A DNA stretch of 64,000 nucleotides from Thermoanaerobaculia bacterium (GTDB taxonomy: Bacteria; Acidobacteriota; Thermoanaerobaculia; Multivoradales; Multivoraceae). Every line of letters begins with the position of its first letter. Position 1 is the stretch's first letter. The stretch lies in contig OY762911.1 of the NCBI GenBank assembly GCA_963666565.1, positions 4,000,001 through 4,064,000 of the forward strand, given 5' to 3'. Under the pieces are notes generated by a model. That model ran no database searches, was not told the origin of the DNA, and saw only the letters and a list, made by a program, of their open reading frames with translations. The position numbers were made by a program, and so were the translations under genes. This document shows, piece after piece, positions 25,004 through 42,527 of the stretch.

Positions 25004-28000
25004 ATGAGGCTCCGCAACGAAACGTTGCGGGCGGCAACGTCCCAGTCACTGGCGAGTCTCGGACTCGTCGGAATCGCCGCGCTCGCGGGCGGTCCCGTCG
25101 CCGCCCAGCGCGCCGACTCGCTCAACACCGTCAACGGCGTCGTGGTAGACGAGCGCGGCGCCCCCACCGCCGACGTGGAGGTCGTCCTGCGGCCCTACCC
25201 GAGCGAGTACCAAGTCGATCTCTTTCTCCTGGGCTACGAAGACACCCTGCCCCCGGCCGTGGACAGCACCCCCACCGGGCCGGACGGCGGCTACTCGCTC
25301 TCGGCAGCCGAGGCCGGGCCCTACTTGCTGGAGTTCCGGCCGCCAGCGGTCGAAGGCCGGCAGCGCTCAACCTCGCCGCTCATCTACGGGAATCTGGTAC
25401 CGCTCAAGGGATCCCGGACCGCCCAAACGGTGGAGATGCCAAACCGCCACCCGGTCGCCGTTCGGATCCTGGATGCCGCGGGCGATCCGATCGAAGGCGC
25501 CCTGGTCGTTGCGGACCCCTCCGTCTGGATCGCGCCACGCTACCTGGGCGCCCTGACCCGGCTCTTCCGCGATGTGCAGACGGGGACCTTCTCGCCCCCG
25601 CCTGAGGAACTGATCCTGCCGACGTTTCACCGCTCAGTCTCCCGGACCGACTCGGAGGGAATCGCGCGCTTCCGGATGCCGACGGCGGAAGCGAGTCTGG
25701 TTGTCTCGGCGCCGGGCTTCGTCCGGGCCGAGGGAAAGTCCGCGTCGGGCCGTGCCGCGTTCCGCCTGGAGCGCGCCCCGGGAGTCCGTCTGCGCGTCCG
25801 CGGTCCGGACGGGGCGCTCGCGCCGGGAGTTCTGATCCGTACGCCGGACACCACCGAGGCCGCCCGCAACCTGACTGGCGCCAACCTCCTCGGCGACCTC
25901 GGCACTCCCGGGGCCCTGGGCGCTCCTGGCGCACCGCTGGCGGTCACCGGTGCAGAAGGCGAAGCCGTGGTCGCTCCGAACTCCACATCCGAAACGAGTT
26001 GGGAACTCGAAGGGCCCGACCGTGCTTTCGCGCGAGTTTCGCTGCCGACGCCGAGTCCCGAGGAAGGGTCAACTCGGGAACGGGTCGTCGAAGTGCGACT
26101 CGAAGCGCCCAGCCGAATTCCCGGCCGCGTCGTCGACGTCGCGTCGGGCCTGGCGGTCGAAGGCGCGGCAATCTGGGTGCAGAGGCTCCCCGGTCACCGC
26201 GCGACCAGCGGCCCGAGCGGCGCCTTCGATCTCGAGACCGGGCCCGCGACGACGGGCACGCGCCTTCTCGCGACGGCCGGCGGCTACCTCCCCGAGCAGA
26301 CGGACATTGCGGCCTCCACCGACCCGAATCCGGCGGAAACCAGGATCGGGCTCACGCCGGAGGCGCCCATCCGCGGCGTGGTGACGGACTCGTCGGGTCG
26401 AGGCGTCGGCGGCGCGAAGATTCGCGCCCAGCCGCGCGGCGCCGGAGTTCCGCCCGTCGGGTCGCTCACCGCCCGGCCCGCAACGTCGGCGCCGGACGGC
26501 GCCTTTCAGTTGGATGAGGTCGTCTACGGCCATGTCTACAGGTTGACCGCCCAGGCGGCCGGCTACGCCAACACGTCTCTCGACCTGCCGCCCCTCGAAC
26601 CCGGCGTGACGATCGACCCGATCCACATGGTGCTGTCGGCGGGCCGCCAGGTCCTCGGCGCCGCGGTCGACTCCAACGGGAATCCCGTGGCAGACGTCGA
26701 TGTAGCCCTTCTATGGCCCCTGGATCCATCGGACTTCAGATCTCCCTTCGACGCTCCCGCCGTGGCCACCACAACGAATGAGCGAGGCGCGTTCGCCTTC
26801 CCCGCCGTGGCGCCGGGCGACTACGAACTGCGCCTGCGCCACCCCGGGTACTCGGATCGTCCGCCGGCGCCGATCGATGTACCGAGCGGCGAATCGGACC
26901 TGGACCTCGGCGACCTCACCCTGGTCGCCGGGGGAACGATCCGCGGCATCGTGACCGACCCTGACGGCGAGCCGGTACCCGGCGCCTCGTTGCAGGCCCG
27001 CGGGCGGAACCGGATCGGCGGCACCGTCCGGACGGCCACGACAGATGCAGACGGGCGATTCCAGATGACCGGCCTCTCCACCGACCTCGCGGACCTCGGC
27101 ATCCGGGCATCCGGATATCCGCTGCTTGTCCGGCCCGGCATCCGCGTCGATAGCGGAGACTCCGTCCTGATCGAACTCGTGCCTGGATCTGCGGTATCGG
27201 GCCGCGTCGTCGACGCCGGCGGCAACGACGCCGTTGGCGTCCCCGTGAGGCTCCGGATCGAACGCGACCGCCGTTCCGGCGGCAGCCCGCTCCTGATGGG
27301 GCCGCGGGACATGTTCCCGCGGCGGGTGACGGACTCCCAAGGCCGTTTTCGCTTTGACGAACTCATCCCCGGCACCTGGTCGGCCGAGGCGCGGAAGGGC
27401 GAGGAGACCGCCAAAGCCGGTCCGATCGAACTGGCGGCCGCCGGCGAGCGGGAAATCGAACTCGTCCTGGGCACGCCGAACCGGCTGACGGTCGTCGTCG
27501 CGACCGCAACGGGCGATCCGGTAGCGGGCGCGCGGATCACGCTGGAGTCGCCGGGCGAGCGGCTGCCAACCGGCTACGGACAAACGGACGGCAGCGGCGA
27601 AGCGCGAATCGACATCTCGCCCGGCTCCGCGACCGTCAAGGTGGAACACGAGCGACTCCGGGACGAATCGCGGCAGGTGGAACTCGCGACAGGCGCCAAC
27701 GAACTCCGGATCGAACTCCATCCGGCCGCGGAACTCGCGGGCACGGTCCGTTCCCACGACGGCGTTCCCCTGGCGCTGGCGACCGTCGAGGCCGTAACCG
27801 AGTACTCCCCGAACACGGAGCGCCATCAGCGGAACACGGCTTCGGACCGGAACGGCGCGTTCCGCGTCACGGACGTCGAGCCCGGCAGCTACATCGTCAC
27901 CGCGCGATCGTCCGGCTACGCCGACGGCGGTCCGGAGACGCCCATCAGGGTCGACCGCGAGTCCATCGAGGGCATCGAGATCGTGCTCCAGCCGGAGGCG

Positions 28001-28810
28001 AGGATCGTCGGCGTCGTGTCGGGATTGACCCCCTCCGGTCTGGCACAGGTGGAGGTCCGGGCCTGGAAGGACTCCCGCTCGCGGGAAACGACGCCGGACA
28101 CCGAAGGGAACTTCTCCCTGGAAGGTCTCAGCCCGGGCGCCTGGCGGGTCGTCGCCACCCGAGGCACGCCAGGCTCGGAGAGGAGAATCGCGGAGAACGT
28201 GACGATCGATCAGGGTGCCGCCGAGACCTTCGTCGAGTTGCGTTTCGAGCGCGGGCGCCGTCTGTCCGGACAGGTGCTCGAAGCCGGGGAACCGCTGGCC
28301 GGTGCGAGGCTGGGGATCGGCGGACAATCCATCCGGACCGACCGCGAAGGCCGCTTCGCGGTCGAGGGACTCGAACCTGGCCGCACGCAGGTGCGCATCA
28401 GCCGGCCGGACTTCAGCGGGACGCAGTACCGGGCGATCGATCTGCAGACCGACCTGGAGGGAGTTCGCCTCGAGCTGGCGCCGGCCGCGGCGACCGTCGC
28501 CGGCACGGTCGTGGACGCGGCATCCGGCCAGCCGCTCGACTTCGTCAGCCTGATTGCTGCCGACGCGGCCACGATAAACGCCCTTGCAACGGACCAGGAC
28601 GCAGGCGCGTCGCTCGTCGGCGCAAGTTTCTCGTTCAGCCAGCCGGGCGGCAGGTTCACTCTCGAACTCGGACCGAACGCCGACCACCTGCTGGCAGCGC
28701 AGGACGGCTACGAGAGCCTCCGGATCCCCCTGGCAATCGAGCCCGGCGAGCGCCGCGAGGGCCTGGTTATCGAGTTGCAGCCGGAAGAGTCCGGAGACCC
28801 GAACCCGTAG
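25004..28810 (+). CDS. Large secreted carboxypeptidase-regulatory-like (Cna-B/transthyretin-type) beta-sandwich repeat protein, copy 1
   Basis: Signal peptide; about a dozen roughly 90-aa repeats of G.V.D..G.P..GA.V...TD..G.F...PG.Y. Confidence 0.85.
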   Translation: MRLRNETLRAATSQSLASLGLVGIAALAGGPVAAQRADSLNTVNGVVVDERGAPTADVEVVLRPYPSEYQVDLFLLGYEDTLPPAVDSTPTGPDGGYSLSAAEAGPYLLEFRPPAVEGRQRSTSPLIYGNLVPLKGSRTAQTVEMPNRHPVAVRILDAAGDPIEGALVVADPSVWIAPRYLGALTRLFRDVQTGTFSPPPEELILPTFHRSVSRTDSEGIARFRMPTAEASLVVSAPGFVRAEGKSASGRAAFRLERAPGVRLRVRGPDGALAPGVLIRTPDTTEAARNLTGANLLGDLGTPGALGAPGAPLAVTGAEGEAVVAPNSTSETSWELEGPDRAFARVSLPTPSPEEGSTRERVVEVRLEAPSRIPGRVVDVASGLAVEGAAIWVQRLPGHRATSGPSGAFDLETGPATTGTRLLATAGGYLPEQTDIAASTDPNPAETRIGLTPEAPIRGVVTDSSGRGVGGAKIRAQPRGAGVPPVGSLTARPATSAPDGAFQLDEVVYGHVYRLTAQAAGYANTSLDLPPLEPGVTIDPIHMVLSAGRQVLGAAVDSNGNPVADVDVALLWPLDPSDFRSPFDAPAVATTTNERGAFAFPAVAPGDYELRLRHPGYSDRPPAPIDVPSGESDLDLGDLTLVAGGTIRGIVTDPDGEPVPGASLQARGRNRIGGTVRTATTDADGRFQMTGLSTDLADLGIRASGYPLLVRPGIRVDSGDSVLIELVPGSAVSGRVVDAGGNDAVGVPVRLRIERDRRSGGSPLLMGPRDMFPRRVTDSQGRFRFDELIPGTWSAEARKGEETAKAGPIELAAAGEREIELVLGTPNRLTVVVATATGDPVAGARITLESPGERLPTGYGQTDGSGEARIDISPGSATVKVEHERLRDESRQVELATGANELRIELHPAAELAGTVRSHDGVPLALATVEAVTEYSPNTERHQRNTASDRNGAFRVTDVEPGSYIVTARSSGYADGGPETPIRVDRESIEGIEIVLQPEARIVGVVSGLTPSGLAQVEVRAWKDSRSRETTPDTEGNFSLEGLSPGAWRVVATRGTPGSERRIAENVTIDQGAAETFVELRFERGRRLSGQVLEAGEPLAGARLGIGGQSIRTDREGRFAVEGLEPGRTQVRISRPDFSGTQYRAIDLQTDLEGVRLELAPAAATVAGTVVDAASGQPLDFVSLIAADAATINALATDQDAGASLVGASFSFSQPGGRFTLELGPNADHLLAAQDGYESLRIPLAIEPGERREGLVIELQPEESGDPNP

Positions 28811-28831
28811 GAGGACTGGAGCGCCGCCGGA

Positions 28832-31800
28832 ATGCCGGACGTGAACCGGAGGTTGGCAGCCTTTGTGCCCCGCCTCATTCTCCTGCTCGCCCTGACCGGG
28901 CTCGCCGCCGGCCAGCTGTGGGCCCAGCCCGCCGCCGAGGCGCCCCTCACCGTCACGGGCACGCTGGTAGACGAACGCGGCGCGCCGGAAGCAGGCGTCG
29001 AAGTCGTCCTGCGGCCCTATCCGAACCGGTTCGAACTCGATCTCGACGTTCTCGGCGTCGCGGACGCGCTGCCCGCGGCGGTCGACCGAAGCCGCTCGGA
29101 CGCGGACGGCGCCTTCGCCGTGTCGGCGCCGGTTCCCGGGCCGTACCGCCTGGAGATGCGCCCTTCCGCACCGGCTGAATCGACCGGTGCCGTGGCGCCC
29201 CTCGTCTACGGAAACCTGGCGCCGCTCACCGCCTCGCGGGTCCTCGAACCGAACGAACTGCCGGACCGCCATCGCGTCGCCGTGCGCGTTCTGGATGCCG
29301 GCGATCGGCCGATCGCGGGGGCCCTGGTCGTCGCGATTCCCACGACCCTGCGGTCCGCCCGGTACGAACGGACGACCCGGCGCCAGCGGCCCCGGCGGCT
29401 CTACCCCAGGTTCCATCGAGCCGCCGCGAGAACGGACGCGGAGGGAGTGGCGCGGTTCCTGATGCCGACCGTCGAGGCCGAGATCGCTACCGCCGCGCCG
29501 GGCTTCGCCATCGGCACGGCGCGGACGGAGGCCGGTCGCGCCGCCTTCCGTCTGGAGCGCGATGCCGGCGTTCGGGTTCGGGTACGGGACCCCAACGGCG
29601 CGCCGGCGCCCGGAGTGCTGATCCGGACGCACGGCCCGAGCAACCTGCCCCTGGCGCTGACCGACGAGCAGGGGGAGGCGCTGGTCAGCGGCGCCTCCGA
29701 CGCCGAAGCCACCTACGAGTTCGAGCGCGCCGACCATGCCCTTGCCACGGCTCCGGCAACGCCGACTCCGCCGGTTGCGGGAGCGCCGGCCGCCGGCGAA
29801 CGCGTCGTTCACGTCCGTCTCGAGACGGCGCTGCGCGTTGCCGGTCGAGTCGTCGATGCGGCATCGGGCGTCCCCGTCGACAACGCGACGGTGTGGGCCG
29901 TCAGCTTCCCCGGACACGCCACATCGAGCGACCGGGCGGGCGGCTTCGAACTGAGCACGCGACTGTCCGGGAGAAAAGCCGCCCTGTCGGTCAACGCCAA
30001 CGGCTACCTGTCCGCCCGCGTCGACGCTGCCGGCGAGCGCGGCGCTACGACCGAGGTGTCCATCCCGCTGGAACCGGCGGCGCCCCTGTCCGGCCTGATC
30101 ACGGACAGCGCCGATCGACCGGTCGCGGGAGCGGCCATCCGGGCCGAGTCGATCGGCGGTTCGCGGCCGGGAGCGGGACCGCGCGGTTCGCTCACGACCG
30201 CCTCCGATGCCAACGGCGCCTTCCGCATCGCCGACGCCGAGTACGACCGGCCCTACCGGCTGACGGTGCGGGCTCAGGGCTTTCCGAGCACCGTCGTCGA
30301 CGCTCCACCCCTGGAGCGGGGCGCGGCCGCGGCGCCGCTCCGGATCGTCCTGACGAAGGGCCGCCGCACCTTCGGGCGTGTCGTCGACACCGAGGGCGCT
30401 CCGGTCGAGGCCGCCGAGGTCAGGCTGCGCCGGCCTCCGGAAACGGGCCGCCGCGTCCCCTTCGACCGGCTCGACGCCACCGAGCCCACGACGACGGACG
30501 AACAGGGCGACTTCCAGCTTCCGCCCGTCAGCACTGGAGAGTACGAGGTGCGCATCGTGCGCGCCGAGTACATAGGCACGGGAGACAGGAGAGTCGAGGT
30601 GCCGCGCGGCGAAGGGACCTTCGACCTCGGCTCGTTCACCCTGGTGCCGGGCGCGGAGATCTTCGGCGTTGTCAGCGACCCCGAAGGTCTGCCGGTCCCC
30701 GGCGCCACGGTGGAGTTCCCCAGGTACGGCGCGGACCGGGATCAGGGACGGTCGACCGCCACGGATCTCGACGGGACCTTCCGCCTTACCGGGCTTCCCC
30801 ACGACCTGGTCGATCTCGACGTTCGCGCGGAGGGCTTCGTACCGTTGACCCTAGGCGGCGCCCGGCCGGACACCGGCGAACCGATCCTCATCGAACTGCG
30901 GACGGGCGCGACGCTCTTGGGCCGCGTCCTGGACGACGCCGGGAACCCGGTCGCCGGCGCCTCGCTGATGCTCGATCCCGACGAGCAGACGCTGACGCGA
31001 TTGGGAGGATGGTCCTCGGTGGACTACTTCAAGAGCACCGGCAGCGACGGCCGCTTCCGCTTCGAGAACGTGGGCGCGGGGACCTGGTCGCTCGAAGCGG
31101 AGGACGGAGACGCCAAGGCTCGACTCGAAGCGATCGAACTGACCACGGGAACCGAGCGCGTCGTCGAGCTCCACTTGAGCGCCCGGAATCGCCTGACGGT
31201 CACCGTGACCACCTTCCGGGGCGACCCCGTGTCCGAGGCGGAGATTCTCGTCCAGAGCAACCAGCACCTCTACTCCAGCGCCTACGGCAGGACCGACGCC
31301 AGCGGCAGCGCGCGGATCGGAATCGAGCCCGGACCGGCCACCGTCCGCACCTTGCACGAGGAGCACGAGGACGATACGCGGAAGGTCGTTCTCGAAGCCG
31401 GGAGCAACGAACTGGCGATCCAGCTCGGATCCGGCGGAACGATCGCCGGCACCGTCCGGTCGGCCGACGGTCCGCCGCTCGCCGCCGCAACCGTCGAAGC
31501 CCACTCGGAAGACGACCTCGACACGCCGGTGCGGTACCGCCGCTACGGGGACTCGGCGAAGACGCTGTCGAACGGGCAGGGACAATTCCGCATATCGGGA
31601 CTCGAGCCGGGAACGTACCTTCTCCTCGGCCGGGCGCCCGGCTTCGCCGCCGACGGTCCCGACCAACCGTTCGTTGTGGACGGCCAGAGCGTGGACGGCG
31701 TCGACATCGTCCTCCAGCCGGGAGGCTTGATCGCCGGAGTCGTCAGCGGGCTCGGTTCCGCGGAACTGAGCCAGGTGCGGATCGAAGCCTCGAATCGAGC

Positions 31801-32539
31801 CCGGTGGCAAACCGCGGCGCCCGACAGCGAGGGGAACTTCGCGCTCGACGACGTGGCGGCCGGGGAGTGGAAGGTCGTCGCCCGCAAAGGCGCGTCCTTC
31901 GGGGGACGGGCCGTCGAACGGACCGTGACGGTGGGCCCCGGGTCGTCCGAGGCGTTCGTCGAGCTCCCGTTCGAACGCGGCCTGCGCCTGAGCGGACAGG
32001 TGTTCGTGGCCGGCGAGCCGATGATCGGCGGAGCCCTGGGCGCCGTTCCACGGGAGGGCGAAGAGGCTCAGTGGACCCGGACCGATCATCTGGGCCGCTT
32101 CGAGATGAGCGGTCTGGACCCCGGCCCTTACGACCTGAGGATCGAGGAGGCGACAGGAAGCGCGGAACATCGATCGATCGACCTGCAGTCCGACCTGGAG
32201 GGCCTGCGCATCGACCTTCAGAGACCGGCTTCGGTGGAAGGCCTCGTCGTCGATGGGGTAACCGGTCAACCCCTCGCCTACGCCTGGCTGACGGCGGGGA
32301 GCGCGCAGCAGATCGCGGCGCTCAGGAGCGACGACTCGGGATCCGGTTCAGCCGGAGAGACGATGAGCGAGAACGGCGGCCGTTTCACGCTCCGGTTCGG
32401 GCCAGGCGCCGAACAGTTGTGGGTCGAACGCGAGGGCTACCAGGACGCCTTCCTTTCCCTGAACGTGGCCCCCGGTCAGCGGCAGGAAGGACTCGTCATC
32501 CGCCTGCGGCCGGAAACACCCGAGGCGCCGGACCGCTAG
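28832..32539 (+). CDS. Large secreted beta-sandwich repeat protein, copy 2
   Basis: Collinear with copy 1 (VVLRPYP, GPYRLE, ARFLMPT, GRAAFRLER, C-terminal EGLVI.L); signal peptide. Confidence 0.85.
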   Translation: MPDVNRRLAAFVPRLILLLALTGLAAGQLWAQPAAEAPLTVTGTLVDERGAPEAGVEVVLRPYPNRFELDLDVLGVADALPAAVDRSRSDADGAFAVSAPVPGPYRLEMRPSAPAESTGAVAPLVYGNLAPLTASRVLEPNELPDRHRVAVRVLDAGDRPIAGALVVAIPTTLRSARYERTTRRQRPRRLYPRFHRAAARTDAEGVARFLMPTVEAEIATAAPGFAIGTARTEAGRAAFRLERDAGVRVRVRDPNGAPAPGVLIRTHGPSNLPLALTDEQGEALVSGASDAEATYEFERADHALATAPATPTPPVAGAPAAGERVVHVRLETALRVAGRVVDAASGVPVDNATVWAVSFPGHATSSDRAGGFELSTRLSGRKAALSVNANGYLSARVDAAGERGATTEVSIPLEPAAPLSGLITDSADRPVAGAAIRAESIGGSRPGAGPRGSLTTASDANGAFRIADAEYDRPYRLTVRAQGFPSTVVDAPPLERGAAAAPLRIVLTKGRRTFGRVVDTEGAPVEAAEVRLRRPPETGRRVPFDRLDATEPTTTDEQGDFQLPPVSTGEYEVRIVRAEYIGTGDRRVEVPRGEGTFDLGSFTLVPGAEIFGVVSDPEGLPVPGATVEFPRYGADRDQGRSTATDLDGTFRLTGLPHDLVDLDVRAEGFVPLTLGGARPDTGEPILIELRTGATLLGRVLDDAGNPVAGASLMLDPDEQTLTRLGGWSSVDYFKSTGSDGRFRFENVGAGTWSLEAEDGDAKARLEAIELTTGTERVVELHLSARNRLTVTVTTFRGDPVSEAEILVQSNQHLYSSAYGRTDASGSARIGIEPGPATVRTLHEEHEDDTRKVVLEAGSNELAIQLGSGGTIAGTVRSADGPPLAAATVEAHSEDDLDTPVRYRRYGDSAKTLSNGQGQFRISGLEPGTYLLLGRAPGFAADGPDQPFVVDGQSVDGVDIVLQPGGLIAGVVSGLGSAELSQVRIEASNRARWQTAAPDSEGNFALDDVAAGEWKVVARKGASFGGRAVERTVTVGPGSSEAFVELPFERGLRLSGQVFVAGEPMIGGALGAVPREGEEAQWTRTDHLGRFEMSGLDPGPYDLRIEEATGSAEHRSIDLQSDLEGLRIDLQRPASVEGLVVDGVTGQPLAYAWLTAGSAQQIAALRSDDSGSGSAGETMSENGGRFTLRFGPGAEQLWVEREGYQDAFLSLNVAPGQRQEGLVIRLRPETPEAPDR

Positions 32540-32557
32540 CCCTGTTAGCGTTCACGA

Positions 32558-35467
32558 ATGCTCGGCCCGCCGTCCAGGTCGCGACTCACCGTGCCGCGGC
32601 CGTTTCTGTGCCTCGGCGTGGCCGCTCTCGCGACCGGCTCACTCTGGGCTCAGCCGGCCGCCGAGGCGCCGCTCACCGTCACCGGCACCCTCGTCGACGA
32701 ACGCGGTTCTCCCGTCGCCGGCGTCGAAGTCGTCCTGCGCCCGTATCCGAACCGGTACGAACTGGACCTCGCCTTCCTGGGCCATCCCGAGGCGCTGCCG
32801 GAAGCCGTGGAGCGAGTCCTCTCCGGTCCTGAGGGCGGCTTCTCGCTGTCGGCGCCCTTGGTCGGCCCATACCGGCTGGAGATTCGGCCGAGCCCGGCGG
32901 CAGCCGGTCCGGCCACCGTCGCGCGCGCCTATCGGCATCTCGCGCCCCTGCGGGTTCCCCTGCACCTCGAGCCCATCGAGCTGCCGGACCGCCACCCCCT
33001 GACGATCCGGGCACTGGACGCCGACGGCCAGCCCGTCGAAGGCGCCGTGGTGATTGCGATTCCCGAGCCCAGGCAGCGCACGGGCAACCCTCCCTACCGG
33101 CCTCCGCACGAACAACCGGAGCGCCTCCACCCCGAGTTCGAGCGCGCGGCCGCGCGCACGGACGGCCAGGGAATCGCCCGGTTCCTGATGCCGTCGCAGG
33201 CTGCGGACGTCGTCGTCCGGGCGGACGGCTTCGCGGCGCGGCGCGCGAACGTGGAGTCGGGCCGCGCCGCCCTGAGGCTCGATTCCGCACCGCACATCAT
33301 CCTTCGCGTCCGCGGTCCGGACGGCGAACCCGCAAACCGGGCCGTGATCCGGCGAGCCGGCGGCGCCGACGAAGTTCCGATCGCTCTGACCGGCGAGGAC
33401 GGTCTGGCTGCGGTCGGCCTCGGCGCCGACGAACGGGCAACGCTCGTGGCGGAGGCGCCTGACGGCTCGTGGATGCGCACGACAACCCGGAATGAACCCG
33501 CTCGGGAAAGCGCTTCCGAACCGTCGGTCCAGGAGCTCCTGCTGCAGCCGCCCGCGGTCATCGCCGGCCGGATCGCGGACGCGACGACCGGGCTCGGCGT
33601 GCCCGACTCGGTGGTGTGGGTTCGCTCCGATCCCGGCCGGCACACGGTTGCGGACTCCTCCGGAGGCTTCCGCCTCTACGCTCCGCTCCCTCAGCGGCGC
33701 ATCGAACTCGGCGCGGTCGCCAGCGACTACCTTGCCGCGACCGCGACCGTCAACGCGGACCGCATCCGCGCGGGGGCAGACGTCCTGGTCGGACTGGCGC
33801 CGGCCGCGCCTCTCGCCGGCCGGGTCGTCGATGGCTTCGGCCGCCCCGTGGCCGGGGCCAACGTCCAGTCCGAGCCAACCGACGACGAGCCACTCGAATG
33901 GCGCACGGACCGGCACGGACGGGCGACATCCGGGCCCGATGGATCGTTCTGGATCCCGAACGCCGTGTACGGCAGCGGCTACCGACTCACCGTCGAAGCC
34001 CCTTCCTACGCTCCCGCGCAACACGACTTGCCGCCCTTCGAGCGAGCTTCCCCGGTGGAGCCGGTCCACATCGTGCTGTCGCAGGGACGGCAGCCCTGGG
34101 GCACCGTCACCGATCCGGAAGGGGCGCCGGTAGCCGGCGCCGAGATCCGACTCTCGTGGCCCTCCGAGTATCCCGAGCTTCCCGCGAGCTTCAGTGACGA
34201 CGAGGCAGTTGAGGCGGTGCTCTCAAACAACCGCGGCGAGTTCGAATTCGCAACCGTGGCGCCCGGCCAGTACGGCGTCAGCATCTCCCATCCGGAGTAC
34301 GTCCATCTGGACGGGAAGCCGGCGAACGTTCCTCAAGGCGCCGGCTACTTCGACCTGGGAGTCTTCGTCCTCACGCCCGGCGCCGAGATACACGGCGTGG
34401 TTTCCGACCCCGATCAGGGTCCCCTGGAGGGTGTGGAGATCAGCGCAAGGCAACGAAGCCAGATCCTGTCGGGGCAGACGCGGACCGCAACCACCGACGC
34501 CAGAGGGCGTTTCCGGCTGGGCGGACTGCTGACCACCGTACTGGCCGACCTCACTGCGACAGCGGACGGCTATGCCCCTGCCGCCGTCGAATCCGTGCGG
34601 CCGGCGACCGGCGAGCCAGTTCTGATCGAGCTCGCCAGGGGCGCTTCGCTGAGTGGACGGGTGTTCAATCCGGATGGCAGCGCCGCCGCCGGTGTCCAGG
34701 TTGGCCTGTCCGTGCCCTATACCGAGTTCCGCCGCCGCGCAGTGTTCGGCGAGCACGTCTTTCACTCCGCCCGCGCGGACAACGACGGCCGGTTCCGGTT
34801 CGATCGGCTCGTTCCCGCCAGATGGTCCCTCGAAGCTGTAGACCGGACGGCCCGGGCCACGCTGGAAGGCATCGAACTGGGATCGGGCGCTTCGCGCGAG
34901 GTCGAGATCAACGACCGATCCGTCGCCAACGTGACGATCCGGCTCGAACCGGGGGCCGAGATTCGCGGCATGGTCACCGGCCTCGACGCCGGCGACATGG
35001 CGACCGTGGGAGTCGAGGCCTGGCAAGGCGCTCTGTTTCGGAGCGCCTCCCCCGACCTCGACGGCAGCTTCTCGATCGAGGCTCTCGCGCCCGGCACCTG
35101 GCAGTTCTCCGCGACGACCGGGGAGCGGCGATCGCCAATGCAGAGCGTGACGGTCGATCCGGGGGCTGCATACGCAACCGTCGAGCTGCACTTCCAGCCG
35201 GGCTTTCGGGTGACCGGCCAGATGTTCGTGGCGGGCGTACCCGCCACCGACGGTTTCGTCACGGCGTCGCAGCCGGGTCAGGAGAACCCGAGACGGACGA
35301 GAACCGATCACCAGGGCCGCTTCGAGATGAAGGGACTGCCGGCCGGCGGCTACCAACTGCAGTTCCGACACCGTCTCGGAGCCACTACCGAGCAGCCGCT
35401 GGACCTGCAGAGCGACTACCACAACCTGCTCGTGCATCTGCAGCCGCTCTCCGACGATCAGAACTGA
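32558..35467 (+). CDS. Secreted beta-sandwich repeat protein, copy 3 (internally deleted, shorter)
   Basis: N-terminus WAQPAAEAPLTVTGTLVDERG identical to copy 2; about two repeats missing near 34905 and final repeat absent. Confidence 0.85.
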   Translation: MLGPPSRSRLTVPRPFLCLGVAALATGSLWAQPAAEAPLTVTGTLVDERGSPVAGVEVVLRPYPNRYELDLAFLGHPEALPEAVERVLSGPEGGFSLSAPLVGPYRLEIRPSPAAAGPATVARAYRHLAPLRVPLHLEPIELPDRHPLTIRALDADGQPVEGAVVIAIPEPRQRTGNPPYRPPHEQPERLHPEFERAAARTDGQGIARFLMPSQAADVVVRADGFAARRANVESGRAALRLDSAPHIILRVRGPDGEPANRAVIRRAGGADEVPIALTGEDGLAAVGLGADERATLVAEAPDGSWMRTTTRNEPARESASEPSVQELLLQPPAVIAGRIADATTGLGVPDSVVWVRSDPGRHTVADSSGGFRLYAPLPQRRIELGAVASDYLAATATVNADRIRAGADVLVGLAPAAPLAGRVVDGFGRPVAGANVQSEPTDDEPLEWRTDRHGRATSGPDGSFWIPNAVYGSGYRLTVEAPSYAPAQHDLPPFERASPVEPVHIVLSQGRQPWGTVTDPEGAPVAGAEIRLSWPSEYPELPASFSDDEAVEAVLSNNRGEFEFATVAPGQYGVSISHPEYVHLDGKPANVPQGAGYFDLGVFVLTPGAEIHGVVSDPDQGPLEGVEISARQRSQILSGQTRTATTDARGRFRLGGLLTTVLADLTATADGYAPAAVESVRPATGEPVLIELARGASLSGRVFNPDGSAAAGVQVGLSVPYTEFRRRAVFGEHVFHSARADNDGRFRFDRLVPARWSLEAVDRTARATLEGIELGSGASREVEINDRSVANVTIRLEPGAEIRGMVTGLDAGDMATVGVEAWQGALFRSASPDLDGSFSIEALAPGTWQFSATTGERRSPMQSVTVDPGAAYATVELHFQPGFRVTGQMFVAGVPATDGFVTASQPGQENPRRTRTDHQGRFEMKGLPAGGYQLQFRHRLGATTEQPLDLQSDYHNLLVHLQPLSDDQN

Positions 35468-35507
35468 TCGGCGGGTCGCCAAACGACGTCGGGTAACCGT
35501 GCGGGAG

Positions 35508-36920
35508 TCACCTCCGCTCGTACGTGTACAGCCTCCGCCCGCTCGCCGACACCGTCTCCACATGACGGATCGCGGCGTACGGTTCCAGCGCCGCCTCCCA
35601 CGCCTCCGGCGTGTAGTCGGCGAAGCGGTCGCCCCGCAACGTGAGCAGGTCGTCGACCCTCGGATCCCCCTGGGGAACGAACTCGACCAGGCCGCGCGGC
35701 GCCAGGGAAACGAGCCAGGAGGCGATCCGCGGCAACGGCACGTTGCGGCCGATGGCCAGGTGGTGGAGCACGGCCAGCGCCACCAGGGCGCCCGCGCCGC
35801 GCGAGCGATGCGCCAGCGAGCGCCTCTCCGTCTGGGACCAGCCCTGGTCGGGCGACGGGTTGGCCAGATCCTGGTAGAGGGGCAGGAAGCGCAGACGATC
35901 CGAGCGCGCGCGCGCGCAGGCGGCCTCCAGCGCGCCGAAGTCCGCGTCGAAGCCGATCGCGTCGCGCACGCCGCCTTCCAGGGCGATGGCGGAGAACTCG
36001 CCCGTGTTGCAGCCGAGATCCCAGAGCTGCTCCGGCGGCGCCTCGGCAATGAAGGAGCGCACGGATTCCGCCTTGCGCGAGGCTTCGGCCGTGTCGTAGC
36101 TGGTCAGCAGCGAGTAGTCGCTCCAGGTCGTGTCCGTGCCCCGGGGCACGAGACTCTCGATCCAGCGCCGAAGCTGGGTGAGGAGACCGCGGTAGGCGTT
36201 GCGCGGCAGCGCACGTCTCTTTGTCCGCTTCGCCGCTTCGCTGCGCGAACCCGCGCGGCGCTCGAAGCGAAGCGGGAGCAGGACATGCGCCTGCATCCTC
36301 GCCGACCAGCGCCGCCGGCGCGGCAGCAGGGCCGCCAGTTCGCGGCCGGGGATTCCCTCCTGCATCCCGCGATACCAGGCGTTGTGGGGAACGCCGAGTT
36401 CCGCCGCCAGCAGCAGGGGGTTCAGGAACTGCTCGCAGAACTGCGAGTGGCCCTCCCAGTACTCGCCTTCGCGATAGCGCCGCAACGACAGCCAGTCGAT
36501 GAACACCGGCTTGGCGCCCTTGAACTGCACGTTGTAGGCGCTCGCGTCGGAGAGCGAGATGTCCCTGTCGAGCAGCCGGATCTGCATCTCCAGGTGATGA
36601 AGCGCGGCCGCCTTCAGGAGGGAGAAGGGCCACTCGTAAGGATAGGAGATGAAGGGCAGGCGGGGATGCTCCAGGACCAACCCTCCGGGCGGCGGCAGGA
36701 CGCCGGCCTCGACCGGATCCACTTCCTCCGCCGCCACCAGCCCTCCCTCGACGACCAGCGCATCGACGAGGCCGCACTTCCGCGCGTAGCGGTACTCCTC
36801 GACCGCGGCCGGCGCGACGCTTCTGAAGATGCGGCCGTCCCGGCCCTCGATCACCTGCCCCGCCGGATCGCGGAAAGAGGAAGGCTCGGCCTGGGACTCG
36901 CCCGCAGCCCCGGCCCGCAC
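35508..36920 (-). CDS. NoeA-like protein: N-terminal kinase-like domain plus class I SAM-dependent methyltransferase
   Basis: SSFRDPAG, SYPYEW, LSDASAYNVQF, VFID, then WDLGCNTGEFS (MTase motif I), LAVLHHL. Confidence 0.8.
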   Translation of the reverse strand: MRAGAAGESQAEPSSFRDPAGQVIEGRDGRIFRSVAPAAVEEYRYARKCGLVDALVVEGGLVAAEEVDPVEAGVLPPPGGLVLEHPRLPFISYPYEWPFSLLKAAALHHLEMQIRLLDRDISLSDASAYNVQFKGAKPVFIDWLSLRRYREGEYWEGHSQFCEQFLNPLLLAAELGVPHNAWYRGMQEGIPGRELAALLPRRRRWSARMQAHVLLPLRFERRAGSRSEAAKRTKRRALPRNAYRGLLTQLRRWIESLVPRGTDTTWSDYSLLTSYDTAEASRKAESVRSFIAEAPPEQLWDLGCNTGEFSAIALEGGVRDAIGFDADFGALEAACARARSDRLRFLPLYQDLANPSPDQGWSQTERRSLAHRSRGAGALVALAVLHHLAIGRNVPLPRIASWLVSLAPRGLVEFVPQGDPRVDDLLTLRGDRFADYTPEAWEAALEPYAAIRHVETVSASGRRLYTYERR

Positions 36921-37135
36921 TACTCGGACTCGGGCTCGTCGGTACTGCCGAAGCCGAAGAAGGCCTGAATGCGATGCCAGTAGTACCTGAAGGCAAGTGC
37001 CGCAGCCGCCACGCCGCCGATCACCGCCTGCAGAATCATGCTGCCCGACGCCGGATCAAGGTATGCATGGGCCGTTTGCGGCACGATCAATGCCACGATC
37101 AAGGCAACCAGCAGACTGGTTCGATGCTTCGCCAT
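36920..37135 (-). CDS. Small membrane protein, AHAYLDPxSGS type (71 aa)
   Basis: Hydrophobic N-segment, AHA-YLDPASGSMILQ, second TM helix, aromatic/basic tail; stop overlaps the start of the methyltransferase. Confidence 0.8.
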   Translation of the reverse strand: MAKHRTSLLVALIVALIVPQTAHAYLDPASGSMILQAVIGGVAAAALAFRYYWHRIQAFFGFGSTDEPESE

Positions 37136-37335
37136 TCGTCTCGCTCCCCGGGGACGCTTCCCGCCACCCCCGGTGAATCGTCCGTGAAGACGAACAGATC
37201 CGGGGCGTTTCGTCAAGGGATCCCGACCGCGCTACGCCTCTCGCCGAGGACGTTGATCGCCCGTCGCGCGCTAGAATACGCGAAGGGTCGCCGAACCGAA
37301 ATGCCCCATCCTTCTGGAACCGGGCGTCGCATCGC

Positions 37336-38646
37336 ATGAGAGCACCTACCACGCGCTGTGTCAGCCAACGAGCTCGCGGTTCGTTCCGAGTCGGAGCCAC
37401 GCTAACGGTGGTGCTCCTCTGCGCGCCCGCGCTGCCCGATCCGCCCAGCGGTGCCCTGCACGGACAGCAGCCGTCCACCGCGCCCACCGTAGCCGGGCGT
37501 CTCATCGGCCCGGACCTGCAACCGGCGGCCGGTCTGGAGGTGCGACTGATCCCGGTCCCGGGCAGCTACGTCCGCCGCCTGTCAGAACTCGGCGTCGCCA
37601 ACGCCGCGCGGATCATCGACCGTACCCGCTCGGATGCCGAGGGGAGCTTCGAGCTGATGGCAACGCGCGCCGGCCCCCACCAGATCGAAGTCATGGCCGA
37701 GGCTCCCGAGACCAGGCCGCCCACCGTTGTCGCCCCGGTCTACGTGCGACTGGTTCTGCGCGCCAAGCCGAATGCCGTCCCGCCCATCCAGCTTCCCAAG
37801 ATGCACCATCTCGTCATCGGCGTCGCGGACGAGGAAGACCAGCCGGTCAAAGGAGCGCTGGTCCTCGTTCAGGCCTCCCAGTGGTCCGACCCTTCGGTCT
37901 GGGCACACAGAGGAAAGACGTCCCCGACGTATGGTCGCGCCAGCGCACGCACGAACGAAGACGGACTGGCGAGGTTCTTTCTTCCTACCGCAAAGTCCAG
38001 CGTCGCCGTCTCGGCATCCGGGTTCAACCTCAGCATCGATGACCTGTCACGGGACCGGGCGGCGTTCAGGCTCGCCCGCGGTGACGGCGTCACGCTCCGG
38101 ATTCTGGATGTCGACGGAGTACCCGTCCCCCGAGCCGTGATCCGGGTCGGCGAGTACCAGGCCATCCCCCTGGCGCTCACCGACGACCGCGGCGAAGCGA
38201 CCGTCGGGTTCCCCGGGGGAAAGGGAATCTCCTACCAGATCGAAGCCGAGGACGGGGCCTTCGCCCGCACCGCGCGCGTGAAGCGCGAGCCCCCGACTGC
38301 TGCCGGACCCCAAACCGTCGAAGTCCGTCTCTGGCCAGCCTTCGAGCTTCGAGGCCAGGTGGTGGACGCGAAGACCAACCTGCCCGTCGAGCTGGCAACG
38401 ATCTGGATCGACGACGGGCTCGAAGGAACTGATCGCGGACAAGACAGACTGGTCTGGGCCCGTCCTGGTGGGGAGTTCACTCTGAAGACCCGCGCCGACT
38501 ACGTGCCACCGGCGATCCGGATCGCCGCCGCGGGCTACAGGACAAAGCGAGTCTGGCTGGGACCGGAGCACTACGCGACCGCCGACCGTCGCAAACCGAT
38601 CCGGGTAGAACTGAAGCCTCAGAAAGGCCGATCCGCGCGGAGATGA
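37336..38646 (+). CDS. Secreted beta-sandwich repeat protein, copy 4 (short, N-terminal modules only)
   Basis: GLEVRLIPVPGSY, GPHQIEV, ARFFLPT, RAAFRL, PLALTDDRGEA match the other copies; ends after about four modules. Confidence 0.8.
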   Translation: MRAPTTRCVSQRARGSFRVGATLTVVLLCAPALPDPPSGALHGQQPSTAPTVAGRLIGPDLQPAAGLEVRLIPVPGSYVRRLSELGVANAARIIDRTRSDAEGSFELMATRAGPHQIEVMAEAPETRPPTVVAPVYVRLVLRAKPNAVPPIQLPKMHHLVIGVADEEDQPVKGALVLVQASQWSDPSVWAHRGKTSPTYGRASARTNEDGLARFFLPTAKSSVAVSASGFNLSIDDLSRDRAAFRLARGDGVTLRILDVDGVPVPRAVIRVGEYQAIPLALTDDRGEATVGFPGGKGISYQIEAEDGAFARTARVKREPPTAAGPQTVEVRLWPAFELRGQVVDAKTNLPVELATIWIDDGLEGTDRGQDRLVWARPGGEFTLKTRADYVPPAIRIAAAGYRTKRVWLGPEHYATADRRKPIRVELKPQKGRSARR

Positions 38647-41600
38647 ACGAGCCCAGAAGCGCTGCAGCCTTCGGGGAGGCCACGGTCACCAGAGATCCAG
38701 CACAAGCTCCGTTACGGCTGGCGAAGCTGGCCCTGGCCACACTGCTTTCGGCGACCTGGCCGGCATCGAGCGGCGATCCGCTGAGCGCCCAGCCTCCGGA
38801 GCTTGCCGACCCCGCCGTGTCCGGGAAGCTGGTCGCCCCGGATGGTTCCGCTGCCGCGGATCTCGAAGTCCGCCTGATCGCGTCACCGGGCAGCTACGCC
38901 CGAAGGCTGCGCGAACTCGGAGAGACCGACGCGATACCGGTCGTCGACCGGAGCCGCACCGATACAGACGGTCGCTTTGTCCTCACGGCGTCGCGGATTG
39001 GCCCTTACCGCCTCGAGATCCTGGCAGCCGTTCCCGACACGACACCGCCAACCGTCCCGGCGCCCGTGTACGCCCTGCTGCTCCCACTCGCCGAGCCGAT
39101 GGTCCTGCCGCCAATCCAGGTGCCCCGGATGCACCACTTCGTCGTCGGCGCGAGAGACGAAGCGGGGGCACCGATCGAAGGCGCCCTGGTCGTTGCCCGA
39201 ACCACTCGCCGGTCGAACCGGGAACGGCGAAGCGTGGAGACGGTCCAGTCGCGGCCCACACCGCCCTGGCGGCAAGCCGCGCAGCCCCGCGAGTCTGAAC
39301 TCGCGCATCCCACGTTCGATCGCGCGACCGCCCGCACCGACGCCCGGGGAATCGCCCGCCTCTCTCTGCCGACCGCCGACGCCAACGTGGTCGTTGCGGC
39401 GCCGGGCTTCGAACTCCGGGCGTCCCTGATTGAAGGCGGGCGCGGCCTATTCGAGCTCAGGCGCGACGCCGGCGTCACCCTCCGGGTGCGGGATCAGCTC
39501 GGCGCGCCGGTTCCCCGCGCGGTGGTCCGCATCGGTGAGAGCATGTCGGTCCCGCTGGCCCTGACGGATGACCGTGGCGAAGCGACCGTCGGGCTGAGCA
39601 CGACACAAGGCATCTCCTTCCAGGTGGAGACGGAGGACCGTTCATTCGGGCGAACCTCGCCGATCGAGTCGTCCGACGACCATTCCGCCGAACCGCGCAT
39701 TGTCGAAGTCACCGTCGCGCCGGCGATTGAACTCGCGGGAAGGGCCGTTGACGCAACGACCCGATTGCCGGTTTCCGATGCAACGATCTGGCTGAACGGC
39801 CGATCCGGCGACCATGCCTGGTCCGATGCCGCCGGCAGCTTTACACTGCGGACTCGCGACGATGCTGGCGCCCTCCACCTGTCCGCCACCGCGCTCGATT
39901 ACCGCGTCCAGGCGATGTCGGTCCCCCTGGAACGAGTGCGTAGCCACCAGGCGATCTCCGTCGTGCTGAACCCGGCGGCCAGGTTCACCGGCACGGTGAC
40001 CGACTCCAGCGGACACCCGGTCGTCGAAGCACGGCTGCTGGTCGACCGCCTGGACCCGGCGGACGCCGGAACCAACGCCGCGAGATCGGGCACCTACTAC
40101 CAGTGGCGGAGCGGCTACGGCCGGGATCACCAGACGACCTCGGCATCCGATGGGACGTTCCGGCTGGAGGGTCTGGACCGCCACCTGTCCTATCTGCTCA
40201 CTGTCGAAGCCCAGGGGTTCGTGCGCTACTCCGTCGAGCTGCCCGGCGCTGGCTCCTCCGGCGCCCAGGATGCCCTCGACATCGTCCTCAGCCGTGGCCA
40301 CCGCACCCGGGGCAAGGTCGTCGACGCTGACAGGCGGCCCGTGCCGGAGGCCGCCATCGCCATCATGCCGTCGATGCGCGATGCCCGCGGCGGCGTCTCC
40401 GTGAGCGCGGACGCCTACCTGACCGCCGCCAGCGACACGGAGGGAGTCTTCGAGTTTCCGGCCGTGGGCCCCGGCAGCTACCAACTGACCGTCGACCATG
40501 CGGAGTTCACAGGCCGGCCGCCGGTAAACATCGACATTCCCGGCGGCGAGGGCGACGTCGATGTCGGTGTCTTCACGCTCACGCCGGGACAGCAGATCGA
40601 AGGCCTCGTCTTCGGCCCGGATCGGCGTCCCGTTGCCGGGGCACGGGTCAGTGCCTTCGACGATCGTCCCGTCCCGGGCCCGATCGACGCCGCTTCCCGG
40701 AGCGCCACCACGGACGACCGCGGACGTTTCCGCATCGGAGGACTGGGAGAACGGCCAGTTCAGGTCGCCGTGGAGGCGGACGGCTTCGCGCCCTACAGCC
40801 TGAAGGCAGTCCGACCCGGCGCGGGCGAGCTGCTGGAGATCGAGCTGGGCCCTGGCGCCACGCTGACCGGGCGCGTCGTCGACGCGGCCGGCGATGCGGT
40901 CTCCGGTGCTTTCGTGACGATCTACAACTTCGATCCCGACATGTGGCGCAGCTCGTTCAGCCCGGTGATGGCGGAAACCGAGGCCGACGGCAGTTTCCGC
41001 CTCGACCTCCTGCGTTCGGGCAGGTGGAGTGCGTCCGCCTTCACCCGGGAGGGAGGTTCGAGTCGTGCCGAGAGCGGCCCCATCCGCCTGGATGAGGGCG
41101 TCGTTCGGGAGATCGAACTCGTCCTGCCGACTGACGGCGCCGACGTCACGGGCATCGTCACGAACCACAATGGAGAGCCCGTGGCGAACGCCGATGTCAC
41201 GATCATCGCGAGCGGTGAACCTGGCGGCGCGTCTCTGCGATCGGCGCCGTCGTGGCAGACGGGTGCAGATCAGCGCGGCCGCTTTCAGTACCGTGGACTC
41301 CCGGCCGGCGCCGCCACGATCATCGCCAGCCATCCGGAGTACCGGATCATCCAGCGCGAGATCAGCCTGGAGTCGGGGTCGAACGAGATTTCGCTGACCC
41401 TTCAGCCGGGCCTTGAGATCACAGGCACGCTGCGGTCCGAGGACGGGCTTCCAGTCGCCCTCGGCGAGATCGATGCGGAACTCCAACCCGCACCGGGGCA
41501 GGATCGCCTGTCCGACGACGTGGTCTGGCGGCGGGGCGGTGTGCACCAATCCGCCCATGCCGTCAGCGACCGCAACGGCGACTATCGACTGGCGGGCCTG

Positions 41601-42527
41601 GACACCGGCGTCTACATTCTGCGGGCGTGGGCCGACGGATACGGGGCGGGCGGCCCGGGCCACCGAGTACGGCTCGAGGGCGGCTCCATTGCCGGCGTGG
41701 ACCTCGTGCTTCCTGCCGAGGCAGCGATCGAAGTGCGGATAGCCGGTGAACCGGTCTCGGGAATCGACGTCGGAGCGCACCAAGGCTACGAGGACTACCG
41801 CACCGCGACGCAGAACCCTAGCGGCGCCTACCGTATCGACGGTCTCGGTCCGGGAGACTGGACCGTGACGGCCCAGGACTTCGGCGGCCGCAGGGCCGAG
41901 CAAACCGTCACTCTCGCACCGGGCGACGAGGCTGTCGTCGAACTCAGCTTCGAGGAGGGTCTGCATCTGACCGGCTGGGTGACGGTCGCGGGCCAGCCGC
42001 CGGGCGGCGGCAACATCGCGCTTCTCAGCGCCAGCCTCTATCCGCGCTGGACCGAACTAGACCGGGACGGGCGCTTTGAACTCCCGGCTGTGCAGCCCGG
42101 CGTCTACAACCTGGCGATCCGCGTCCCCGGGGCGGCCGGCGAGACCACCGGCACGATCTACCAGCGCCAGGTCGAGCTCCAGGAAGACGAGGAGCTTCGC
42201 CTCGACCTGGAACTGCCCGCCGTGCTGACCGGCCTCGTCACCGACAGCGTAGGGCGACCGCTCGCTGGAGCGCTCCTCCTTACCGTCCAGGCCGGCACGG
42301 AGACCATCGCCCCGTCGGCGGTGCTTTCGGGCGCGGGAATGGCCGGTACGGCGCTGACCGACGCGGAGGGCCGGTTCGAGTTGCGGTCGGCCCCAGGCTC
42401 CTGGGATCTGCAGATCGTACGCGAGGGCTTCGAAACACTGATCGTTCCCGTCGAGTTGGCGTTAGCGGAGCACCGCCAGGGTCTCGTCTTCGAACTCCGC
42501 GCTGGCGGGAACCAGCGGCAGAACTAG
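38643..42527 (+). CDS. Large secreted beta-sandwich repeat protein, copy 5
   Basis: ATGA overlap with copy 4; full repeat series; C-terminal QGLVFELR. Confidence 0.85.
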   Translation: MNEPRSAAAFGEATVTRDPAQAPLRLAKLALATLLSATWPASSGDPLSAQPPELADPAVSGKLVAPDGSAAADLEVRLIASPGSYARRLRELGETDAIPVVDRSRTDTDGRFVLTASRIGPYRLEILAAVPDTTPPTVPAPVYALLLPLAEPMVLPPIQVPRMHHFVVGARDEAGAPIEGALVVARTTRRSNRERRSVETVQSRPTPPWRQAAQPRESELAHPTFDRATARTDARGIARLSLPTADANVVVAAPGFELRASLIEGGRGLFELRRDAGVTLRVRDQLGAPVPRAVVRIGESMSVPLALTDDRGEATVGLSTTQGISFQVETEDRSFGRTSPIESSDDHSAEPRIVEVTVAPAIELAGRAVDATTRLPVSDATIWLNGRSGDHAWSDAAGSFTLRTRDDAGALHLSATALDYRVQAMSVPLERVRSHQAISVVLNPAARFTGTVTDSSGHPVVEARLLVDRLDPADAGTNAARSGTYYQWRSGYGRDHQTTSASDGTFRLEGLDRHLSYLLTVEAQGFVRYSVELPGAGSSGAQDALDIVLSRGHRTRGKVVDADRRPVPEAAIAIMPSMRDARGGVSVSADAYLTAASDTEGVFEFPAVGPGSYQLTVDHAEFTGRPPVNIDIPGGEGDVDVGVFTLTPGQQIEGLVFGPDRRPVAGARVSAFDDRPVPGPIDAASRSATTDDRGRFRIGGLGERPVQVAVEADGFAPYSLKAVRPGAGELLEIELGPGATLTGRVVDAAGDAVSGAFVTIYNFDPDMWRSSFSPVMAETEADGSFRLDLLRSGRWSASAFTREGGSSRAESGPIRLDEGVVREIELVLPTDGADVTGIVTNHNGEPVANADVTIIASGEPGGASLRSAPSWQTGADQRGRFQYRGLPAGAATIIASHPEYRIIQREISLESGSNEISLTLQPGLEITGTLRSEDGLPVALGEIDAELQPAPGQDRLSDDVVWRRGGVHQSAHAVSDRNGDYRLAGLDTGVYILRAWADGYGAGGPGHRVRLEGGSIAGVDLVLPAEAAIEVRIAGEPVSGIDVGAHQGYEDYRTATQNPSGAYRIDGLGPGDWTVTAQDFGGRRAEQTVTLAPGDEAVVELSFEEGLHLTGWVTVAGQPPGGGNIALLSASLYPRWTELDRDGRFELPAVQPGVYNLAIRVPGAAGETTGTIYQRQVELQEDEELRLDLELPAVLTGLVTDSVGRPLAGALLLTVQAGTETIAPSAVLSGAGMAGTALTDAEGRFELRSAPGSWDLQIVREGFETLIVPVELALAEHRQGLVFELRAGGNQRQN

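Follow-up and report, generated by a model that had tools for sequence, protein, structure and literature searches.

Are the exported repeat proteins encoded close together in this marine Thermoanaerobaculia bacterium a surface repertoire that diversifies through hypervariable loops, or a set of old paralogs, each of which keeps a loop of its own? The question is raised by five genes, P0001 to P0005, which lie within positions 25004..42527 of a 64,000-nucleotide stretch of DNA (G000:C1:4000001-4064000; the whole stretch is called the window here) from a genome of 4.79 Mb in a single contig with about 70% G+C. An earlier note on this DNA had read them as a five-gene array of secreted beta-sandwich proteins in which a conserved scaffold carries hypervariable loops. 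We find that the loop joining strands two and three of domain 2 is not hypervariable: it is a stable mark of each paralog, which changes somewhat faster than the scaffold and is mostly under purifying selection. Furthermore, the genes form two accessory islands flanking a core gene pair, in a locus that is a recombinant mosaic between species. The proteins themselves, old paralogs of a lineage-restricted family, are probably exported and accessory, with a binding or structural role rather than an enzymatic one. We have moderate confidence in this reading.

The five paralogs and their domain-2 loops

All five genes lie on the plus strand, and all five translations are intact. P0001 (25004..28810; 1268 amino acids (aa); a signal peptide and tandem CarboxypepD_reg domains), P0002 (28832..32539; 1235 aa; a signal peptide and 13 beta-sandwich domains) and P0003 (32558..35467; 969 aa; a further family member) are genes 1, 2 and 3 of a first module. 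The second module consists of P0004 (37336..38646; 436 aa; isoelectric point (pI) 9.9), a short paralog that has the first four domains only, and, as its second gene, the full-length paralog P0005 (38643..42527; 1294 aa; pI 4.9), the start of which overlaps the P0004 stop by 4 nt. That these are five co-oriented paralogs is agreed by the open reading frames (ORFs), by a genome search in which a P0002 query recovers the other four window copies (E 5e-52 to 3e-205) and by a MAFFT alignment in which the five proteins are collinear. The N-terminal block that had been described as common to them is present, but the similarity is not limited to it, as identity between the full-length copies is 29-47% in each 50-column block from end to end. 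Aligned with P0002, P0003 is missing two or so internal domains and the last domain (about three in all), and its relative in genome G015 spans P0002 residues 2-1131. The description of a single array has to be amended: the five plus-strand genes are there, but two minus-strand genes divide P0001-P0003 from P0004-P0005 (3+2), and a sixth full-length paralog, 45% identical to P0002, is found elsewhere in the genome (G000:C1:561708-565367).

A tree (LG+C20; 23 of 31 inner branches starred) was built from 34 N-terminal regions, which came from 14 genomes in the genus. It places the five window genes in five separate groups, each of which also contains genes from other species that occupy the syntenic position. 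The five orthogroups predate the species of the genus, and the paralogs are old. The nearest relatives are at very different distances: P0005 is 97% identical to its counterpart in G014 (dS, the synonymous divergence, is 0.038), P0002 has an ortholog in G013 that is 85% identical, P0003 groups with one G015 gene, and the genomes fetched contain no close ortholog of P0001 (best dS about 0.83-0.93).

The domain-2 loop occupies aa 171-205 in P0001 (25514..25618), aa 169-191 in P0002 (29336..29404), aa 168-191 in P0003 (33059..33130), aa 179-196 in P0004 (37870..37923) and aa 186-222 in P0005 (39198..39308), all on the plus strand. In the AlphaFold2 model of P0002 it appears as a short helix (141-144) followed by model residues 144-152 with a predicted local distance difference test score (pLDDT) below 50. 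Most other domains of that model also have a short helix or low-confidence residues after their second strand, which bears out the earlier observation that the equivalent loop varies in later repeats. The loop strings quoted in the earlier note were located in all five proteins, and the loop does differ between the copies: its columns are 8% identical between the five, compared with 38% for the rest of the N-terminal 470 columns.

Within the orthogroups, the loop is identical at 44% against 59% for the other columns in the P0001 type (n=8), 50% against 62% in the P0002 type (n=9), 50% against 55% in the P0003 type (n=2), 57% against 72% in the P0005 type (n=3), 57% against 80% in a sister group of the P0005 type (n=4) and 82% against 87% in the P0004 type (n=4). 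Its length is constant inside each orthogroup (the same, for example, in all eight P0001-type orthologs), and W183, S184 and P186 of the P0004 loop are invariant across 17 P0004-type sequences. When the ratio of non-synonymous to synonymous change (dN/dS) was estimated by the Nei-Gojobori method for 19 ortholog pairs, the loop codons gave 0.09-1.62, with 17 of the 19 values below 1, and the remaining codons gave 0.19-0.44. In a 99-sequence family alignment, where strand positions have a conservation of 0.62 and non-strand positions 0.55, the domain-2 loop scores 0.44-0.45, which ranks it only ninth from the bottom among 20-residue windows; variation is as great or greater in the matching loops of domains 10, 5, 8, 6 and 13 and in the linker between domains 3 and 4. 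At the DNA level, the repeats between copies in 24000-43500 are short and 60-91% identical, which is simply paralog similarity (the 91% repeat is 35 nt long), and neither a template/variable repeat pair nor near-identical cassettes were found in that interval.

Because the loop keeps its length and much of its identity among orthologs (44-82%, with the scaffold at 55-87%), because its dN/dS is mostly below 1, because it ranks only ninth among the variable windows and because there are no cassette repeats, the hypervariability proposed for it does not hold. Variable beta2-beta3 loops number about a dozen, one to a domain, and this is one of them. The earlier note had itself named a conserved ortholog for each gene, with invariant loops, as the pattern that would speak against its proposal, and this is largely what is seen: each gene has its own orthogroup at the same place, although the loops are conserved at 44-82% rather than invariant. 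Similarly, the idea of a diversified repertoire survives in so far as there are several diverged copies whose number varies between species, but not in the sense of hypervariable loops. The more general lesson is that a loop that looks hypervariable between paralogs can turn out to be a conserved signature once orthologs are compared.

We also considered whether the loop might be the target of a diversity-generating retroelement. This candidate was ruled out, as there is no template/variable pair in 24000-43500 and no reverse transcriptase among the larger window ORFs scanned with Pfam.

Accessory islands around a core gene pair

The two genes that separate the modules are not members of the repeat family. 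One (35508..36920, minus strand) encodes a 470-aa protein that resembles class I S-adenosylmethionine-dependent methyltransferases (NoeA-like), with weak Pfam methyltransferase hits (E 0.004) and an atlas feature score of 0.99 to methyltransferase/NoeA clusters. The other, upstream of it (36920..37216, minus strand), encodes a small hydrophobic protein of 98 aa that matches no Pfam or NCBIfam family and is 77-94% conserved in G013, G014, G008, G015, G009 and G003. This pair is present in every genome of the genus that was examined, with or without flanking repeat genes.

The distribution of the repeat genes is quite different. Of 18 other genomes in the genus, 13 contain strong matches to P0002 (E below 1e-100), two contain only a match at E ~6e-4 and three contain no match. 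All five of these genomes without, or weakly matched for, the repeat family have the methyltransferase-like gene at 84-93% identity. In G009, which is one complete contig, and in G003, the order is CoA-transferase, esterase, amidase, methyltransferase-like gene, small-protein gene, SDR and an indolepyruvate-oxidoreductase-like (IOR) gene, with zero repeat genes. Since these two genomes keep the core locus without them, the repeat genes are accessory and form two islands, P0001-P0003 and P0004-P0005, on either side of the core pair. The repeat genes overall also evolve faster than their neighbours: flank and core genes mostly have dN/dS values of 0.05-0.17 at dS 0.26-0.63 (0.05-0.09 for the methyltransferase-like gene), whereas close orthologs of the repeat genes have 0.23-0.40 (0.23-0.30 for P0004 in comparison with G013 and G008).

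Different parts of the locus have their closest relatives in different species. Positions 26355-32539 are 83.5% identical to G013, where the P0005-type protein is only about 39% identical, and positions 35508-42520 are 96.8% identical to G014, where the P0001- and P0002-type genes are 51-57% identical. The locus is therefore described best as a recombinant mosaic between species. In comparison with G014, dS is 0.014 for P0004 and 0.038 for P0005, but 0.27-0.33 for the adjacent methyltransferase-like, small-protein and SDR genes. A contig from a sponge-metagenome run spans 37173-41867 with 43 differences in 4695 nt (99.1% identical); the methyltransferase-like gene in that run has 73 differences over 938 sites (92% identical), and P0001-P0003 are hardly covered. 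Because the module is 97-99% identical while the adjacent core genes are at about 92% identity or a dS of about 0.3, these data point to a recent transfer between species, or a sweep, of P0004-P0005, with a left boundary near 37000-37300. The two islands thus offer a clean example of an accessory recombining locus, which can be present or absent, truncated, or 97-99% identical across lineages whose neighbouring genes are about 92% identical.

Copy sets differ between species in number and in truncation. The G013 counterpart of P0001 (L028:4387-6975), which lies directly after the amidase gene, is 862 aa long and starts about 450 residues in, without the signal peptide and domains 1-4; it is likely to be a truncated remnant. 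In G013 (L029:2310-5468) and G008 (L031:5371-8526, minus strand), the P0004 ortholog ends in TAG and is directly followed by the in-frame ATG of a 596-aa ORF made up of C-terminal family domains without a signal peptide. A 595-aa version occurs in G006, and the piece is absent from the window genome and from G014. It could be half of a split gene, the product of stop-codon readthrough or a sign of decay.

P0001, P0002 and P0003 share one reading frame (start spacings of 3828 and 3726 nt, gaps of 21 and 18 nt). The only stop between P0001 and P0002 is TAG, the codon with which most family genes in the fetched loci end. As each gene has a signal peptide of its own, this layout looks like the footprint of tandem duplication rather than a read-through polyprotein. 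We also rejected readthrough of an in-frame TAG in P0005-type matches, which was an artefact of matches that overran natural stops.

Fold, export signals and probable role

Pfam identifies only beta-sandwiches in these proteins. PF13620 (CarboxypepD_reg, transthyretin-like; gathering cut-off 32.3) scores 335.4, 334.0, 235.3, 57.7 and 328.7 bits in P0001 to P0005, over 11, 11, 9, 1 and 10 stretches, and the remaining matches are related beta-sandwich families on the same segments. SdrD_B and SpaA have summed scores above their cut-offs, yet no single stretch passes, and no NCBIfam family scores above its cut-off for the window repeat proteins. There are 85 PF13620 matches in the genome, with multi-domain arrays confined to the six family genes. 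An AlphaFold2 model of P0002 residues 36-1235, built on the 99-sequence alignment, is all-beta, with a pLDDT of 83.3 and a predicted template modelling score (pTM) of 0.66, and its strand pattern gives 13 sandwich domains; for P0004, a 17-sequence alignment gave a pLDDT of 54.5, which is too low to use. Single P0002 domains superpose closely on the transthyretin-like domain of human carboxypeptidase D (5aq0_B; Z 12.6, root-mean-square deviation (rmsd) 1.6 A over 79 of 82 residues) and less well on rhamnogalacturonan lyase domain II, teneurin TTR, the SusC N-terminal extension (NTE) and CnaB2. A global fold search with the 1200-residue model returned only generic multi-sandwich chains (GhpA, BaTIE, alpha-2-macroglobulins, nuclear-pore and sperm-axoneme proteins) with TM-scores of 0.11 or less for the model. 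The PF13620 domain, the model and the carboxypeptidase D match all support the description in the earlier note of an uncharacterised exported beta-sandwich repeat family of the transthyretin-like kind.

Each of the five proteins has an N-terminal hydrophobic, signal-peptide-like segment with a common A-Q motif. All five lack LPxTG, a PEP motif within the final 40 residues, a lipobox within the first 60 and any hydrophobic segment other than the N-terminal one, in agreement with the earlier note, which had seen no catalytic part, no such anchors and no barrel. No SLH or other cell-wall-binding domain was found by Pfam, and neither Plug nor TonB_dep_Rec families matched the five proteins at E <= 0.01. 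The long proteins are acidic (pI 4.9-5.2), with 0-1 Cys (0 in P0001, P0002 and P0005) and 2-8 Lys (7, 8 and 4 in P0001, P0002 and P0005, which have 1268, 1235 and 1294 aa).

A search with P0002 returned 184 database clusters at E <= 1e-20; those with names are annotated as 'carboxypeptidase regulatory-like domain-containing protein' or 'hypothetical protein' and come from Acidobacteriota or Holophagales metagenome genomes. With a profile of the P0004 block, 31 representatives were found at E <= 1e-30, 98 at <= 1e-10 and 726 at <= 0.001 among 1.84 billion. Because so few match, the family is small and lineage-restricted. The short four-domain P0004 form is real and conserved: proteins of 389-460 aa that are 63-99% identical to it make up 16 database clusters. 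More distant proteins of 1285-1376 aa, at 29-32% identity, include records named Thermoanaerobaculia and Acidobacteriota; these forms consist of a signal peptide and sandwiches only, without an anchor, and are longer by some 130 residues at the C-terminus. A full-length match (E <= 1e-40) was also found in 7 of 12 genomes from other families of the order, as a single gene in each of the four inspected. In the part of the full-text literature on this domain, on Acidobacteriota and on sponge symbionts that was accessible, we found nothing on this family. As it stands, it matters little: it is one more lineage-restricted exported family built from a very common domain and annotated generically.

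The closest known system is the group of multi-repeat 'carboxypeptidase regulatory-like domain-containing proteins' of Acidobacteriota, among them a single-copy form of ~1340-1376 aa, which share with the window proteins PF13620, a signal peptide followed by sandwiches only, full-length collinear similarity (26-32% identity) and the same source annotation. By comparison, the window proteins lack about 130 aa at the C-terminus, and the family here has 5+1 copies, a conserved four-domain short form and two accessory islands. The sole solved chain found by sequence is the eukaryotic NOMO2, a subunit of the BOS complex (PDB 9c7v_B; E 1e-4 over about 114 residues, P0002 555-668 against chain residues 908-1022), and NOMO 9c7u_B reaches Z 9.2 with P0002 domains; the likeness is at the domain level only. 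NOMO, a long chain of transthyretin-like or Ig-like sandwiches, is anchored in the ER membrane at its C-terminus. That anchor has no counterpart in the window proteins, which are hydrophobic only at the signal peptide. Cna-B/SpaA/SdrD stalks are of the same fold class (Z 10.8 for CnaB2, 10.4 for BcpA, 9.9 for SpaA and 9.9 for SdrD), and the earlier note had placed the proteins beside such adhesin and pilin stalks. Membership is not borne out: unlike the Gram-positive pilin and MSCRAMM stalks, the window proteins have no LPxTG and only 4-8 Lys per full-length protein of about 13 domains, too few for one isopeptide bond per domain, and the sources name the relatives as Acidobacteriota or Holophagales. 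The best Foldseek rows are GhpA, the Aureispira grappling-hook protein (9flp; E 3e-16), and B. anthracis TIE (6fwv; E 6e-13; Z 10.4 over 249 residues), both of them strings of sandwiches. With a global TM-score of 0.05-0.09 for the model and an rmsd of 20 A or more, it is the type of bead that these proteins have in common with P0002 and not the arrangement. A TonB-dependent receptor with an N-terminal CarboxypepD_reg domain was rejected, as there is no Plug or barrel family and the model consists of 13 sandwiches.

In the reading that we favour, the proteins would be exported through Sec and cleaved at the conserved Ala-Gln site, and would then serve, in the envelope or extracellularly, as non-catalytic binding or structural rods. 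Protruding copy-specific loops could give each paralog its own partner or ligand. The role would be dispensable and linked to the niche, such as a part in attachment or in contacts with the matrix of a host, rather than housekeeping, which would fit less well with the dispensability and turnover of the genes. Relatives of this bacterium occur in sponge metagenomes, and, if surface-exposed, the proteins would be candidates for contact between symbiont and host or symbiont and phage.

Several points weigh against this reading, and they would bear mostly on the destination of the proteins and on what they bind. By hydropathy, P0003-P0005 have weak signal peptides, with every 19-aa window below 1.6, and there is no evident route across the outer membrane, with no secretion genes seen in scans of the larger window ORFs. 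A pTM of 0.66 over 1200 residues may indicate that the predicted protein is a compact body rather than a rod. Gene context is of little help: among 123 ORFs scanned around the four distant single-copy homologs and the sixth paralog, none corresponds to a neighbour of the window genes, and the methyltransferase-like neighbour persists in genomes without the repeat family and so gives no functional hint. As regards selection, two of the 19 loop comparisons have a dN/dS of 0.98 and 1.62, on 35 and 23 codons, and episodic positive selection may have acted on the domain-2 loop. Nor are the neighbours uniformly slow, since the small protein has a dN/dS of 0.36 in comparison with G014 and a 45-codon piece of the esterase has 0.60 in comparison with G015.

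If the proteins do not cross the outer membrane, they could be periplasmic, either as a shield like the alpha-2-macroglobulins or as partners or decoys of TonB-dependent transporters, the periplasmic N-terminal extension of which is the same domain. This is unlikely, although it is the alternative to which we give most weight. It would explain why no signal for crossing the outer membrane is seen; the SusC NTE domain is matched with Z 11.6, and about 30 other PF13620 matches in the genome are single domains in ~1000-aa frames, which we presume to be mostly TonB-dependent receptors. However, there is no transporter gene beside the cluster. The alpha-2-macroglobulins of E. coli (ECAM, 5a42) and Salmonella (4u48), exported long sandwich chains that are listed by Foldseek (E 7e-12 to 4e-9), have a TM-score of just 0.06-0.08; the window proteins have no lipobox, Pfam lists no thioester-domain family for them, and P0001, P0002 and P0005 could not form a thioester because they have no Cys. 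That the proteins are instead subunits of an S-layer-like lattice or an extracellular fibre, with paralogs co-assembling through copy-specific loop contacts, we regard as doubtful. Signal peptides without an anchor, an acidic pI of about 4.9 and 0-1 Cys in the long forms would suit such subunits, as would the translational coupling of the basic, short P0004 to the acidic P0005, and a Sulfolobus SlaA/SlaB entry is matched with Z 10.2. Kustd1514, the anammox S-layer glycoprotein (NF052345), is likewise a large exported many-sandwich protein and gives a partial match in three stretches, but at 58.3 bits for P0001, 37.6 for P0005 and none for P0004, against a cut-off of 1400, the window proteins are not members of that family. 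Moreover, a lattice subunit would not be expected to be missing or weakly matched in 5 of 18 genomes of the genus, one of them complete, nor to have copy sets that differ between species, and no SLH or similar domain accompanies it.

A more elaborate version of the lattice idea is more doubtful still. It would make the paralogs subunits of one hetero-oligomeric extracellular fibre, coat or lattice of this sponge-associated Acidobacteriota genus, with the loops as a recognition code for subunits or host ligands, the basic P0004 as a cap or adaptor for the acidic P0005, and modules swapped between species to change surface specificity. A complex prediction for P0005 50-600 with P0004 46-436, each with its own alignment, scored 0.00, which has no bearing either way. 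We consider it very unlikely that the domain-2 loops are hypervariable under diversifying selection, as in a system of antigenic or ligand variation. The unalignable loop of the five copies, the raised dN/dS of the whole genes, recombination between species and the two high loop values are what such a system might show, but the fixed length and the identity of the loop inside orthogroups, the three invariant P0004 residues, the 17 low dN/dS values, the eight less conserved windows and the lack of cassettes, repeat pair or reverse transcriptase all argue for a conserved signature. Least probable, and by our estimate highly improbable, is that the cluster is being lost and that P0003 and P0004 are truncated remnants. 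P0003 is indeed short by about three domains, the G013 ortholog of P0001 has lost its first ~450 residues, a signal-less 596-aa piece follows the P0004 type in G013 and G008, and some species have lost the family altogether; yet all five window ORFs are intact, the P0004 form is kept in 16 clusters under a dN/dS of 0.23-0.30, and all genes are well below 1.

The sixth paralog and the flanks of the locus

The sixth paralog (L040:9679-13374; locus G000:C1:552000-571900) comes immediately after ORFs that match MlaE, an ABC ATPase and MlaD, and an EPSP synthase gene is a few kb away. The single-copy homolog in G030 also adjoins EPSP synthase. The sixth paralog may be the ancestral copy.

The flanks of the five window genes are metabolic, with CoA-transferases, a BD-FAE esterase and an amidase upstream and the SDR and IOR genes downstream, and Pfam scans of the larger ORFs in the rest of the window found no secretion genes. 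When 24700-43700 was scanned for promoters and terminators, the counts (0 and 9 sites resembling them) were close to those in shuffled sequence (0.8 and 6.7), and nothing was found by Rfam in 24000-44000. Between the P0005 stop and the SDR start there is about 1 kb (42528-43549) that is unique in the genome, slightly lower in G+C and without a Rfam or Pfam match. The same gap is only about 113 nt in G014, and a contig from the sponge-metagenome run X5 joins 42480 straight to 43546; the segment is an insertion private to this genome.

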